Shown here piece after piece: positions 15,001 through 18,000 of a stretch of DNA of 64,000 nt (the stretch's first letter is position 1; each line of letters starts with the position of its first letter). Source of the stretch: Escherichia coli. GTDB lineage: Bacteria > Pseudomonadota > Gammaproteobacteria > Enterobacterales > Enterobacteriaceae. The position numbers are program-made. The stretch lies in the NCBI RefSeq assembly GCF_030013205.1, contig NZ_CP122648.1; one strand, written 5' to 3'.

Positions 15001-18000
15001 AAATACAAAATAAGCACCTTAAATAAGCCTCTGGCGAGCTAAACGGTCATTACATAAGGGAATGTATTGTTTTTATCAAAACCTCGTTAGAACGCGTTTT
15101 AGAGCGTTATTAGACAATAATGAAGAATAGCACTACACAGGAGAGCACGAATTGCTAAGACAAATTATAAATTGCTGAAATAGATCGGATTTTTTGCAAA
15201 ATGGTATTGACAAATGTCTCTTTCTGTGCAATAATAGGTATTAGAGGGACAGAAAACATTCTTATCCTCTAAGTAATTAAACCAATGCACCGCACTTTGA
15301 GCCGTCAGGCTGCAAGGTGTCTTTTTCTTTTAACCAAATAGAATAGGAGGTTAATTAATGAAATATTTCACTCCACAGGATGTAGTAGAAGCCTGGAAAC
15401 GTGGTGAGATCAATCGTTTTAAAGTAAGGATGAACAGGAACACAGCGCGACGCTGTGGTTATCCAGAGCGTGAAAAATGTTTTGACGATGCACTAAAAAT
15501 TATTGATGAACTGCGTAAGGCAGAAGTAGAGAAAGAATAATAACAGGAGAAGGAGAAAACTATGAGCGAAACTAAGAAACCAATTCCGCGCACTTACCTA
15601 CACGTTGACCCTGAAATCTTCAAGGTTTTATTTGCTGAAGCCAAGAAAAGGCAAATTATGGTCAGTGATTTGATGTTAGAAATCATTACTGAAGCAGCAG
15701 AGAACATCAAACAAAAAAAGGGTAAGTGATCCTCATTCACTTTAGTAGCGCATTAAGCGTGATTTATAAGGAGATAATTCTAATGTCTAAAATTAAATTG
15801 ATTCGTGAAAAATACCAGTATGTTGATAAACAAACAGGAGAAATTAAAGACAGAACTTTGAATATACCACACTACTTTTGTGAGATTGAATTCATCTACT
15901 CCTCAAATATTGAGGATGGAAAAGCGAAGTTTAGTGCAGAAATGCAAAAATTATATTGCTATGTTTCAGATTGGGAGAAATCAGGGGGGATATGTTTTGA
16001 AACACAAACGAAGTTAAGTAAAGTTTGTGGCTGTAGCCGTAAGACAGTTAATGAATTGATTGGTCTTATGATTAAAATCGGTCTTTTAGAAGAGGTCGGA
16101 GAACGAATCCCAAAACGTCCTTTAAAATTACGTGCGCTACTTCTCACAGATGCACATATTACTCCCCCTGGAGAATCATCACTACCTGATCCTTCTGAGA
16201 AAGAAGACGAATCTAATGAAATATTGAATGTTTCCGAAATCATCCTTGAAGAAGAAACACAAGAGCCAGAGTTCCCTGAGCGGCCCGAAATTTTTACTTG
16301 GCTTCTTTCCCTTGATAAGAAGAAACCACCGCACGAAGAAACAGAAGATTTTGTAAAACGTGCATTAGATTCAAAGAATATCTATCTTGAGAAACAGGCT
16401 TTTCACGATCTGATAATATCTCTAAGAGAAAAAAGTGAAATATACGATTCAATACCATTCTAAGGAGAATAAATGACTTATAACATCACTATAGGAAACA
16501 AAACTATTGAAATAACTGAAAGCGGATACAACATTTTAAAAGCTATTTTGGAAATAGAGTTCTCACCGCCGACAGTGGTTAGCTTTTGTAGTTTAGGCGG
16601 CTACAGCGCACAACACGTGAATCATTGGTTAAACCATTTTACATCGTTCGGTGTGCTGGATTATGAAGGGATTAACAGCACTACATTTCGTCTTTTGAAA
16701 TTAAACAAAGATTTTGAATTGTTTATCACAAACAATCAATAACAACAGATCGGGCAATACATATGGCAAATGCATTTATGGCGATATTCATTGTAACAAT
16801 GGTATCAAGTTTTTATAATCCACATAAAAAGAGGGAAAATGGGAAGAAAGAAAAAGAACAACTTAAAACGTATTGAAAAAAACAGTAACTTCAATTCAAC
16901 AAGACAACGTCCACCGACACACACCAATAACGAAATTCCAGGGGAAGAGATAATATTTATTCTTGAAACAGAATCCCCTGAATTAAGCGATGAAGAATTA
17001 GAAATAATCCAGTCAATGCCAGGCGTTTACTTTCGCCCAAGAACAAGAAAACAAACTATCATTTCTGATGGCACTCTGAAACGTTGGCAGCTTTTAGGGT
17101 TTAGCTCCTATCATCATTTTTTGGGATTTAACGCTTTCAATAATTGTGTAGGTGGTGCATCGGAAGTCGATCTGATGGCTCATTTAGAAGATACATTAGC
17201 TTCTAACAAACGTTCTAACTAATAAAATGATGGGAGTATGTATAAGCGCCCAATGAAAATAATCGAAAAAGGAAAAATAATGATTAACTATCAACTATTA
17301 GAAACAACATTTTTTAAAGAAGCAAAACAACTTGCAGAAGTGTTTATTTCACTGGCTGAACGAGCAAAAGAAGAAAATGATTTTGCCTTGCTTGATGATG
17401 TGCTGGATGACATTGCAACCTATCGTATACCGCTACAGATTGCACTAAACAAGGCTAAACAGATTCAGCAAGAGATGGAATCAGCAGATCAAGGAGAGAT
17501 TGCACAATGACAGACAACATTCTGGAAGTTATGGACACTCTTTCGGATCGGATGATCGCCCTACAGACACGTATCAATCAAGCCTATTCAGATTTATGCG
17601 ATTACACGCTCTCTCAATGCGTTAGTAGCTTAATGAAGGTGAATGTAAGCCTTGACGATTTCATCTCTCTGGTGAGCGATTTAGAGCTATCTAAGGACGA
17701 TGTCAGGCTGTGTACTCAAACCATCACAGACACCGCCAGCACGTTAAAGGCTGCAAGTGAAGAGATTCAGCAATTAGTAGATGATTTAGCAAAAAGTGCT
17801 ATTTTCTCCAAATGATAATGAAAATCATTTGCATTTATAACGATTTCATTATATAATGATATTAGGGGTAGATAAAAAGGTTTTGACTGGTGTTAATCCT
17901 TCTACTGTCATAAATCCCTGCATATGGAAGGTGATAGCCTCAAGGGTTGAGTGGCATTAACCTCTAACAAATATTACCTTCCATCTCTCAAGAAGTTTTA

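Follow-up and report, generated by a model that had tools for sequence, protein, structure and literature searches.

Seven co-directional open reading frames (ORFs) on the + strand at positions 15358-17815 of the window, a 64,000-nucleotide stretch of the Escherichia coli contig NZ_CP122648.1, are real genes, and we consider it likely, with a probability of roughly 0.6 for the explanation as a whole, that they are the early operon, with the replication module, of a satellite-like element residing at a tRNA-Gly gene. The run is present as the first-pass annotation had located it, and the strong ribosome-binding sites noted there are found for ORF1-5 and ORF7, as Shine-Dalgarno-like sites at normal spacing, though not for ORF6 if read from 17238. 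The genes, and the signal ahead of them, are as follows:

15207-15235, + strand: near-consensus sigma-70 promoter (TTGACA, 17-nt spacer, TG-AATAAT; 11 of 12 matches), about 120 nt 5' of ORF1
15358-15540, + strand: ORF1, 60 aa, basic; strongest conservation among the seven (dN/dS 0.08)
15562-15729, + strand: ORF2, 55 aa, basic; ribbon-helix-helix-like pattern
15783-16463, + strand: ORF3, 226 aa if read from the ATG that an AAGGAG site precedes (the ORF as mechanically called opens at a GTG at 15726)
about 15783-16133, + strand: N-terminal winged helix (HTH_36) of ORF3, allele A
16473-16742, + strand: ORF4, 89 aa; weak winged-helix-like hints only
16839-17222, + strand: ORF5, 127 aa; basic N-terminus and conserved PGVYFRPRTRKQTII core; a core gene of the element family
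17280-17510, + strand: ORF6 from its probable start, 76 aa (90 aa from 17238), acidic; its stop overlaps the start of ORF7
17507-17815, + strand: ORF7, 102 aa, pI 4.1; predicted two-helix hairpin

RefSeq/PGAP calls the same seven genes in identical E. coli genomes. Across 17-18 related loci the dN/dS ratio is between 0.08 and 0.61, below 1 for all seven ORFs, which indicates that purifying selection acts on every one of them, and in a divergent circular variant ORF1, ORF4, ORF5 and ORF6 have kept the same length despite an amino-acid identity of 46-54%. Because of this selection and of the kept lengths, the seven ORFs exceed what chance would produce. The ATGA overlap of the ORF6/ORF7 pair is real, and the start/stop coupling is retained in relatives. 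The start of ORF6, however, is probably not the ATG at 17238, which is preceded by a GGGAG at a spacing of just 1-2 nt, but that at 17280, which is called by PGAP, has an AAGGA 8 nt upstream, and is where the orthologue in the variant element L012 begins. The description of the run as small acidic proteins suits ORF3 (pI 5.0), ORF6 (4.3-4.8) and ORF7 clearly, and also ORF4 (5.4); ORF1 (9.1) and ORF2 (9.4) are basic and ORF5 (7.9) is neutral.

The ORFs lie inside a mobile element, as had been proposed, which spans 11386-26149 between 18-bp tRNA-Gly repeats (14.76 kb with an IS2 insertion, about 13.4 kb without it) and carries an integrase. Outside the operon and its upstream region, it comprises:

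11386-11403, + strand: left attachment repeat, in which 18 bp of the tRNA-Gly 3' end are copied (TTCCCTTCGCCCGCTCCA)
11850-12107, + strand: hypothetical gene, 85 aa
12141-12461, - strand: YecR-family lipoprotein, cargo
13114-13665, - strand: small serine recombinase (resolvase/DNA-invertase type), 183 aa, 99% conserved in relatives
17816-18807: non-coding gap of about 1 kb, conserved (relatives are about 90% identical here), separating the early operon from the structural genes
18808-19017, + strand: small gene before the capsid gene, 69 aa
19017-19391, + strand: small gene before the capsid gene, 124 aa, in the position of the head-decoration gene of phage inny
19408-20436, + strand: major capsid protein (Phage_cap_E family)
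20823-22646, + strand: tape-measure-like protein, 607 aa against 613-615 aa in relatives, its 3' end replaced by IS2
22631-23961, + strand: IS2 (IS3 family) insertion, foreign to the ancestral element
24051-24728, + strand: Dit-like tail/baseplate protein
24822-26042, - strand: tyrosine integrase (DUF6538 and Phage_integrase, PF00589), beside the right repeat
26132-26149, + strand: right attachment repeat, where the same 18 bp of the tRNA-Gly 3' end recur

In 17 of the element's predicted genes that were scanned, Pfam and PHROG searches recognised only the capsid, tape-measure-like and Dit-like genes as virion genes; genes for lysis or for a terminase, portal, protease, tube or sheath were not found. 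Nor was a packaging site or a helper-sensing gene identified in the element; mobilisation is thus something we infer. What is found is a self-contained mobile element that is equipped for its own integration or maintenance and has an incomplete set of virion, packaging and lysis genes, as in phage satellites in general. Of 5426 complete E. coli genomes, 547 match the element, and the same conserved architecture is seen at glyU, thrW and one further site (08-00022, locus L009), the integrases of the glyU element and of the elements at other sites being about 33% identical; integrase-less circular forms of 13.6-13.8 kb also occur. A scan of IMG/VR returned 13 loci under UViG names that, as we read them, contain IMG isolate-genome taxon IDs, and these loci therefore give no evidence of packaging.

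The part of the run whose function can best be read is the ORF2-ORF3 pair. Whereas several of the ORFs indeed have no recognisable domain, as the first-pass annotation had stated for all, ORF3 is an HTH_36 winged-helix protein: it scores 22.1 bits and the satellite alleles 20-23.6 bits against a Pfam cut-off of 25, and the copy of the domain in a phage protein (see below) reaches 44.6. When four alleles (A-D) were scanned against PHROGs, the matches (phrog_270, E=4e-6, for ORF3) were almost all to replication initiators, O-like initiators and DnaD-like proteins or helicase loaders, the remainder being DNA-binding proteins and one family of unknown function. Searches of PDB sequences with ORF3 and with gp184 of phage inny gave no biologically meaningful relative, and the C-terminal half of ORF3 is short, acidic and conserved, without a detectable homologue. 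On the strength of these profiles, we propose that ORF3 is a lambda-O-like, origin-binding replication initiator. ORF2 is identical to inny gp185 over 53 aa (100%). A beta-strand/helix/helix pattern is visible by eye in ORF2, which has no significant HMM match, and the 52-aa protein found in its place in the variant element L012 has a weak Arc-like match (phrog_582, E=1.8e-3); ORF2 may be a CopG/Arc-like regulator of the replication cassette.

The candidate origin lies upstream of the operon:

14157-14325: iteron array, allele A, of the palindrome (T)GTAACG-N3-(C/G)GTTAC(A), five copies, one of them degenerate
14326-14400: AT-rich tract directly after the iterons, conserved in the sequences compared (loci L007-L009)
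14401-15200: conserved non-coding stretch (relatives are about 80-96% identical here) that contains hairpins and an inverted repeat of 30 nt (14454-14483 / 14702-14731)

The relatives stop resembling one another precisely over the iteron block (14191-14345) and over the N-terminal domain of ORF3 (about 15785-16133). The domain exists as at least five alleles, each with its own iteron type and each with three to five palindromic iterons at a spacing of about 22-24 bp and an adjoining AT-rich tract. Domain allele and iteron type agree in all 17 loci compared, which are not phylogenetically independent; every allele was found on differing ORF3 C-terminal backbones, judging by C-terminal domains 81-100% identical to the window copy. 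Searches for the allele-A iterons hit 77 genomes and those for the domain of this allele 75, with an overlap of 55/60 among the accessions listed. In the circular 13.6-13.8-kb variants, the slot of the cassette is occupied by an Arc-like ribbon-helix-helix protein and a helicase-like HTH protein. This co-variation points to 14157-14325 as a candidate binding site of the N-terminal domain of ORF3 and as part of an origin, of which we propose that the AT-rich tract is the DNA-unwinding part. DnaA boxes were neither present nor enriched near the proposed origin. We also considered, and rejected, inversion by the invertase of the 218 bp that the 30-nt inverted repeats enclose (14454-14731): the segment is in one orientation in all 18 loci that contain it. 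No Rfam family matched within 10500-28500 at E<=1; thus, the conserved non-coding stretches do not belong to known families of RNA.

The other five ORFs are conserved, with homologues restricted to Escherichia/Enterobacteriaceae, and their roles can be suggested only in outline. ORF1, present in two copies in the circular variant, may be a small regulator. ORF4 (dN/dS 0.22; 47% identity in the circular variant; missing from some relatives, such as L008) may also be a regulator. The homologues of ORF5 are Escherichia/Enterobacteriaceae proteins with uninformative names; so are those of ORF7, all the named ones coming from Escherichia, and the label 'transporter' that some of them bear was set aside as unsupported for a 102-aa soluble acidic hairpin. 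Structure prediction was uninformative for ORF5 and ORF7: the model of ORF5 (pLDDT 55) is unreliable and too poor for a fold search, and the AlphaFold2 model of ORF7, a plain hairpin of two helices (pLDDT 73) that agrees with the helical character ascribed to the coupled pair, has no fold match in the PDB at E<=0.001.

The nearest phage relatives of the structural proteins of the element are the virulent 145-150-kb Stephanstirmvirinae. Along its entire length, the capsid protein has an identity of about 23-25% with their major head protein; between the tape-measure-like protein and inny gp105 the identity is about 31%. For the Dit-like protein it is 49-53% when compared with the product of the inny gene that follows the tape-measure-like gene (53% for other Stephanstirmvirinae), and the order tape-measure-then-Dit is the same in the element and in inny, the one phage whose gene order was compared. 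These homologies suggest that the element behaves like a satellite of, and may depend for help on, virulent Stephanstirmvirinae (phAPEC8- and phi92-like myoviruses). In a low-stringency blastn comparison of the whole element with the inny genome, the only matches were the ORF2-ORF3 segment and short, ribosome-binding-site-like ones.

Three of the Stephanstirmvirinae carry the DNA-binding domain of ORF3 in nuclease-like proteins. Inny gp184, muut gp154 and Mt1B1_P17 QNJ49226 share a layout of a variable winged helix-turn-helix (wHTH), a conserved wHTH and a MUG113/T5orf172 domain. In inny gp184 the first wHTH matches allele A at 87% identity, and in QNJ49226 it matches allele C at 99%; all three proteins have a second wHTH with 88-89% identity to allele B. 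From muut gp154 a fifth allele (E) was predicted beforehand and then found, with 100% nucleotide identity to its first wHTH, in E. coli chromosomes, where it belongs to the ORF3 of the same element family and is accompanied by a fifth iteron type. The nuclease domain scores 25 bits for MUG113 (cut-off 22.3), 17.7 for T5orf172 (cut-off 20) and E=4e-18 for phrog_681 'endonuclease', and the phage proteins are 36-51% identical to T5-like putative homing endonucleases. By analogy with the origin-directed nuclease Odn of phage ICP1 (see below), these proteins may act against the satellite. Allele-A iterons were also sought in the inny genome, where they might have marked a shared origin, but it is devoid of them, bar one widely spaced half-site pair. 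The allele-B core GGAA-N5-TTCC, however, recurs there in six copies, as hairpins just downstream of early promoters, so the conserved phage wHTH may have native targets in the phage.

Three other explanations were weighed. The first-pass annotation had read the run as anti-defence, toxin-antitoxin or host-takeover genes, and ORF6 and ORF7 could accordingly be a two-component effector or a toxin-antitoxin pair. ORF5-7 lend themselves to this, being without recognisable domains and confined to a narrow range of hosts, and ORF6 and ORF7 diverge fast and are mosaic, a pattern typical of phage-conflict proteins: the ORF6 alleles are just 40-54% identical, and those of ORF7 (dN/dS 0.52) have swapped N-termini and an expanding ELSELSE repeat. 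We nevertheless regard it as unlikely for the run, since PADLOC, Pfam, NCBIfam and PHROGs gave no toxin-antitoxin, defence or anti-defence match for any of the seven ORFs, ORF2 and ORF3 are accounted for as a replicon, neither ORF6 nor ORF7 is toxin-like (both are acidic, soluble and helical), and the seven genes always occur within the same capsid-, tail- and integrase-bearing element. The earlier interpretation is partly supported. The readable part of the run is a replicon/regulatory module, and a phage-directed takeover or interference role may apply to ORF5-7, the only candidates left.

That ORF3 is a transcriptional regulator only, the palindromes being operators for the divergent invertase side and the early operon, and that the element replicates otherwise or not at all, seems to us quite improbable. 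The iterons are palindromic and lie 1.4 kb upstream of ORF3, a pattern that also fits operators upstream of an operon, several ORF3 alleles bear the PGAP name 'transcriptional regulator', which in some genomes is 'LexA family', and the HTH_36 scores of the satellite alleles fall just under the cut-off. Against this, the PHROG matches of alleles A-D are nearly all of the kinds expected of an initiator, three to five repeats at a spacing of about two helical turns abut a conserved AT-rich tract 0.9 kb from the promoter, as in an origin rather than an operator, and the iterons bound by lambda O likewise have internal dyad symmetry. Moreover, a helicase-like protein fills the slot in the 13.8-kb circular variants, which, as they exist as circles, must carry a replicon. 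Very unlikely, in our view, is that the element is a decaying cryptic prophage remnant with leftover early genes, its similarity to lytic phages reflecting mosaic exchange or homing-endonuclease traffic. Signs of decay do occur, in that IS2 clips the tape-measure-like gene, an IS-associated deletion has removed the structural half of the element in strain W13-16, and ORF3 is interrupted by IS66 in strain U90; the resemblance of the phage T5orf172 proteins to homing endonucleases would also fit. A remnant, however, is hard to reconcile with the retention of one minimal set of genes by hundreds of genomes, both at several attachment sites and in free circular form, with purifying selection on all genes tested, with initiator and iteron specificities that stay matched through repeated recombination, or with structural homologues from strictly virulent phages, which leave no prophages.

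The closest parallel to a satellite with its own replicon, opposed by phage nucleases, is the PLE-ICP1 system, in which Odn (Gp88) of ICP1 is an origin-directed nuclease (Barth et al., 2021, PMC8263062), a copy of the DNA-binding domain of the PLE initiator (42% identity) fused to a T5orf172-type nuclease (PMC8263062). Like PLE, the element is a small chromosomal island linked to a virulent myovirus (here through sequence likeness), and its replicon is modular, an initiator DNA-binding domain and a cognate origin being swapped among island variants; like Odn, the phage proteins are chimeras of an initiator-type DNA-binding domain and a T5orf172-type nuclease related to homing endonucleases. 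Unlike Odn, they have two tandem DNA-binding domains of different specificity, with identities to the satellite of 87-100% rather than 42%. In place of the RepA_N initiator and large serine recombinase by which the PLE family is recognised, the element has an O-like HTH_36 winged helix and a tyrosine integrase, its sole serine recombinase being the 183-aa invertase-type protein. It also differs from PLE in encoding its own capsid, tape-measure-like and Dit-like proteins; PLE is reported to remodel the capsids of ICP1 by means of TcaP (PMC10002752).

With the cf-PICIs of Enterobacteria, the element shares its character as an integrative E. coli island of about 13-15 kb with its own HK97-fold capsid protein and, presumably, a reliance on parts of other phages. 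The cf-PICIs possess a full head module (portal, protease, head-tail connectors, small terminase) together with AlpA and Pri-Rep, and take only tails, from temperate helpers. The element, in contrast, has no portal, protease, connector or terminase match, carries tail-related genes (tape-measure-like and Dit-like), and has its relatives among virulent phages. It resembles P4-like satellites and classical PICIs in being tRNA-integrated, about 10-15 kb long, and equipped with an integrase and its own replicon, and Pfam and PHROG searches of the element found no homologue of Sid, Psu, Delta, alpha-primase, Stl, AlpA, Pri-Rep, TerS or Ppi. A P4-like/PICI-type element with primase, Ant-like and TerS-like genes directly adjoins it at 1-11385, and the P4-type primase (2403-4208) lies in that neighbour only. 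At the level of the replicon, an N-terminal winged helix matched to dyad-symmetric iterons beside an AT-rich region is shared with lambda O, O-like and DnaD-like initiators, and a small ribbon-helix-helix-like gene (a weak fold assignment) directly 5' of the initiator recalls the CopG-RepB cassettes of pMV158. Lambda O differs in that its origin lies within the initiator gene and not 1.4 kb upstream; the short acidic C-terminal half of ORF3 is a further difference.

In the explanation that we favour, of an early operon with a replication module, the sigma-70 promoter at 15207-15235 would drive ORF1-7, and ORF2 and ORF3 would form the replication cassette. The N-terminal winged helix of ORF3 would bind the iterons next to the AT-rich tract, and its acidic C-terminal half would presumably recruit host or helper replication proteins; by virtue of this binding and recruitment the element could amplify after excision or, in integrase-less variants, replicate as a circle. 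The initiator domain and the iterons, with at least five specificities, would be exchanged between elements as one unit, plausibly as an escape from phage nucleases with copied DNA-binding domains, as for ICP1 Odn and PLE. The most likely targets of ORF5 and of the ORF6/ORF7 pair would be the helper phage or the assembly of the element's own capsids, with a role, for example, in interference or as a scaffold.

A wider reading, to which we give about an even chance, is that the seven ORFs serve as the centre of control and replication for an undescribed E. coli satellite family that parasitises Stephanstirmvirinae and is engaged in an arms race with double-headed, Odn-like nucleases. The family would then be present in about 10% of complete genomes, at glyU, at thrW or as 13.8-kb circles, and use its own capsid, tape-measure-like and Dit-like proteins; the satellites would swap initiator-iteron cassettes, the phage nucleases would bear two stolen origin-binding domains, and ORF5-7 would be new helper-interference or assembly factors. 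In a full-text literature search, no description was found of satellites of phAPEC8, Phapecoctavirus, Justusliebigvirus or Stephanstirmvirinae, or of satellites at glyU or thrW. To our knowledge, PLE-ICP1 is so far the only case in which a virulent phage opposes a satellite through an origin-directed chimeric nuclease. If the wider reading is true, E. coli would have a counterpart of this Vibrio conflict, with phAPEC8- and phi92-like phages as the partners; ORF1 and ORF4-7 would be candidates for helper-sensing, interference and capsid or tail remodelling functions, and the five initiator-iteron pairs and the two-headed nucleases offer direct experimental handles. Phages of these types feature in phage-therapy collections, and with a related element in about one in ten E. 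coli genomes, the family could be a common, overlooked determinant of their host range.

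The seven small, co-directional plus-strand ORFs that the first-pass annotation had singled out at 15358-17815 (hereafter ORF1 to ORF7) are present in the sequence, and the PGAP annotation places seven genes in the same run. The window is 100% identical to chromosomes of swine ETEC strains, such as ETEC4079 (NZ_CP122643), at the glyU/ETT2 type III secretion locus. AGGAG-like sites at normal spacing precede ORF1 to ORF5 and ORF7, and a near-consensus sigma-70 promoter was found at 15207-15235 (TTGACA, a 17-nt spacer and TG-AATAAT; 11 of 12 matches). ORF6 and ORF7 do overlap by ATGA, as do their counterparts in relatives; the start proposed for ORF6, at 17238, had to be moved, as the site there is too near its ATG, and both PGAP and the orthologue in L012, a circular variant (see below), begin at 17280, most likely the actual start. 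Across 17-18 related loci dN/dS was below 1 for all seven ORFs, from 0.08 for ORF1 to 0.61 for ORF3, and a divergent variant retains the sizes of ORF1, ORF4, ORF5 and ORF6 at 46-54% identity. Together with the ribosome-binding-like sites, the promoter and the ATGA overlap, this indicates that the seven ORFs are real genes.

The run belongs to a mobile, phage-satellite-like element at 11386-26149, flanked by 18-bp direct repeats of the 3' end of tRNA-Gly (glyU).

Gene order of the element
YecR lipoprotein gene; then, on the minus strand, the gene for a 183-aa serine invertase
1.7 kb of non-coding DNA; ORF1 to ORF7 (15358-17815, plus strand); 1 kb of non-coding DNA
Genes for 69-aa and 124-aa proteins; Phage_cap_E major capsid protein; gene for a 65-aa protein
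607-aa tape-measure-like protein, its 3' end clipped by IS2; Dit-like protein; tyrosine integrase

The element yielded no gene for a terminase, portal, protease, tube, sheath or lysis function, and no packaging determinant. The same layout occurs at thrW in O104:H4 C227-11, EM06-18-14 and U90, and at another site in 08-00022; the integrase of these elements is only about 33% identical to that of the glyU element. Part of the 2.6-kb seven-ORF run was matched in 547 of 5426 complete E. coli genomes. In EM06-18-14 the position of the invertase is taken by an unrelated 183-aa protein encoded on the opposite strand (7395-7946 of locus L008; phrog_2578/phrog_14768, function unknown), so the invertase is not a fixed component of the family.

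Phage counterparts of the structural proteins were sought by tblastn, run locally on the complete inny genome (Justusliebigvirus, 147 kb) and also on a phage collection. The Dit-like protein matches, at 49-53% identity, the inny gene that follows the tape-measure-like gene and matching genes of other Stephanstirmvirinae; the tape-measure-like protein is 31% identical to inny gp105, and the capsid protein is 23-25% identical, over its full length, to the Stephanstirmvirinae major head protein. The order tape measure then Dit is common to the element and inny. The phages that match best are strictly lytic myoviruses, 130-152 kb in size (145-151 kb for most), and the element is therefore not a prophage remnant of these phages.

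ORF3 matches HTH_36, and nearly all of its PHROG matches are annotated as replication initiators, O-like initiators, DnaD-like loaders or DNA-binding proteins. ORF2, directly upstream, has a ribbon-helix-helix-like sequence pattern. The N-terminal winged helix of ORF3 exists in at least five versions (alleles A to E; the window carries A), and alleles B, C and D, all three of the others that were scanned, gave profile matches like those of allele A. In the region compared, nucleotide similarity among related elements is lost only at 14191-14345 and in the N-terminal half of ORF3 (about 15785-16133), and the former block holds a distinct repeat array for every ORF3 allele.

Iteron arrays of the ORF3 alleles
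Allele A (window): five copies of GTAACG-N3-CGTTAC
Allele B: four copies of GGAAATGAGTTCC
Allele C: five copies of ACAGAA-N3-TGTTA
Allele D: three 22-bp repeats, GGTAGGTCACTGTGAGCTAGGG
Allele E: four copies of TATCAA-N3-TGATA

The iterons are mostly spaced by about 22-24 bp, and in the loci whose sequence was inspected the array is followed by an AT-rich tract, which in loci L007-L009 is near-identical to that of the window. The N-terminal allele agrees with the iteron type in 17 of 17 loci, and every allele is seen on two or more backbones, as judged by the differing identity of the C-terminal half of ORF3; genome-wide, 77 genomes have allele-A iterons and 75 the allele-A domain, and the two sets of accessions nearly coincide. 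Such a pattern is the signature of a putative iteron origin and its cognate initiator travelling as one cassette. Since the iterons are palindromes placed 1.4 kb upstream of ORF3, the array may instead have a purely regulatory role. A copy of the allele-A candidate origin and ORF3 is also carried by a 166-kb plasmid of APEC E19019 (NZ_CP126938.1, at about 39.4-42.6 kb), a strain that has chromosomal copies too. Between the putative origin and the operon promoter, near the DNA invertase gene, 218 bp are enclosed by a 30-nt inverted repeat (87% complementary; 14454-14483 and 14702-14731), and more hairpins lie at 14417-14505. The segment 14454-14731 was considered as an invertible switch, and there is no sign that it is one: its orientation did not vary among the 18 related loci having it.

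The same domains recur in phage nucleases. The interval 15550-16175, which covers ORF2 and the N-terminal 131 codons of ORF3, is 96% identical to inny; ORF2 is shared with phage muut at 99.6%, and Mt1B1_P17, like muut a member of the Stephanstirmvirinae, has 38 bp in common with the ORF3 linker. Inny gp184, muut gp154 and QNJ49226 of Mt1B1_P17 have one layout: two winged helices, the first variable and the second conserved, ahead of a nuclease domain. The nuclease domain scores 25 bits against MUG113 (cut-off 22.3) and 17.7 bits against T5orf172, below the cut-off of 20; it matches phrog_681 ('endonuclease', E=4e-18) and is 36-51% identical to T5-like putative homing endonucleases. The first winged helix of inny is 87% identical to satellite allele A and that of Mt1B1_P17 99% identical to allele C, and the second winged helix of all three phages is 88-89% identical to allele B. 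The first domain of muut, unmatched at first, was predicted to represent an unsampled satellite allele, and this was borne out: its DNA has some match in 112 genomes, and for 31 E. coli genomes among them the identity is 99% or higher (100% in those listed). In U90 the muut-type domain belongs to the ORF3 of a member of the element family that has the fifth iteron type (allele E). As full-length versions were found in only these three phages of the collection, the nuclease is an accessory gene; phAPEC8 and ESCO5, also Stephanstirmvirinae, lack it.

The inny genome lacks allele-A iterons. The allele-B core, GGAA-N5-TTCC, occurs in it six times (at 127797, 130682, 131563, 133871, 135605 and 136464 of the inny record), within the hairpin GGCGGGAA(A/G)TGGTTTCCCGCC and just past sigma-70-like early promoters. 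An estimate from genome length and pattern degeneracy puts the chance expectation at about 0.035 matches, but the six copies are one repeated element and the core is one of four motifs tested. This recurrence in early-promoter hairpins suggests that the conserved phage winged helix may have native phage targets; the domain could have passed either way between phage and satellite.

An integrase-less version of the element forms an entire contig of 13.6-13.8 kb in three independent assemblies (L012, GCA_017107025.1; L013, GCA_019868325.1; L014, Logan SRR13791242). In L012 the end and start of the contig join in frame, restoring a 615-aa tape-measure-like gene, and this version is thus circular. 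Its ORF2/ORF3 slot holds a 52-aa Arc-like protein and a 495-aa helicase-like HTH protein, which amounts to an exchanged replication module. ORF1 is doubled, with one paralogue ahead of each sub-operon, and further genes are present: one of 68 aa behind the ORF4 homologue, one of 70 aa that follows ORF7 and is coupled to it, and one for superinfection immunity (Imm).

Of the seven genes, ORF1 (60 aa) is under the strongest constraint. ORF4 shows weak winged-helix hints only; ORF5 is a core gene whose named homologues are solely from E. coli and Enterobacteriaceae, and its structural model is poor. ORF6 alleles are just 40-54% identical and ORF7 is mosaic. The description of the coupled pair as acidic and helical was correct, ORF7 being modelled as a hairpin of two helices (pLDDT 73), for which fold comparison gave nothing informative; as a description of the whole run, 'small acidic proteins' applies to ORF3, ORF4, ORF6 and ORF7 only, ORF1 and ORF2 being basic. 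Toxin-antitoxin or anti-defence roles had been suggested, and none of the seven ORFs matches a toxin-antitoxin, defence or anti-defence family. By inference only, ORF5 to ORF7 would target the helper phage or the assembly of the element's own capsid. The first-pass observation stands and its functional guess is supported only in part.

Several observations concern insertion sequences and neighbouring DNA. The IS2 at 22631-23961 removes the last 24 or so codons of the tape-measure-like gene, and a second IS2, 95.6% identical to it, lies within the ETT2 region (40939-42271). In strain W13-16 an IS2 abuts the position equivalent to 18195 and the DNA up to the ETT2 remnant (about 48116) is gone; the seven ORFs are retained and the structural genes are absent. 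In the allele-E element of U90 (9001-12384 of its locus) ORF3 is interrupted by IS66, which shows a further case of IS-mediated inactivation of single element copies. Directly upstream, a second satellite-like island (1-11385) encodes a P4-type primase (2403-4208; phrog_864, E=3e-155), Ant-like and repressor-like regulators, ProQ/FinO, PerC, NUDIX and DUF2213 proteins, a 679-aa protein with a transglycosylase-like region and a TerS-like fragment; as it ends at the same tRNA-Gly repeat, glyU carries a tandem pair of phage-parasite-like elements. The DNA to the right (about 26340-47700) carries genes for a GH15 glycoside hydrolase (ygeQ-like) and for a toxin of the GhoT/OrtT family (about 28058-28237), as well as what appears to be an extensive cluster of ETT2 type III secretion genes (sctC, sctV, sctN and others).

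No description of such a satellite-like system was found in the full-text literature searched, an absence that is no proof of novelty; its gene content sets the element apart from P4, PICI, cf-PICI and PLE families. Odn/Gp88 of phage ICP1 combines a copy of the origin-binding domain of PLE RepA (42% identity) with a T5orf172 domain, and by cutting PLE origins it drives PLE replicon swapping (PMC8263062). The predicted nucleases of inny, muut and Mt1B1_P17 have the same architecture. The element and these phages would have in common with PLE and ICP1 a swappable replicon and a phage nuclease that mimics the origin-binding domain. The seven-gene run is best read as a putative early operon for regulation and replication in a satellite-like element that appears to be tied to the Stephanstirmvirinae.
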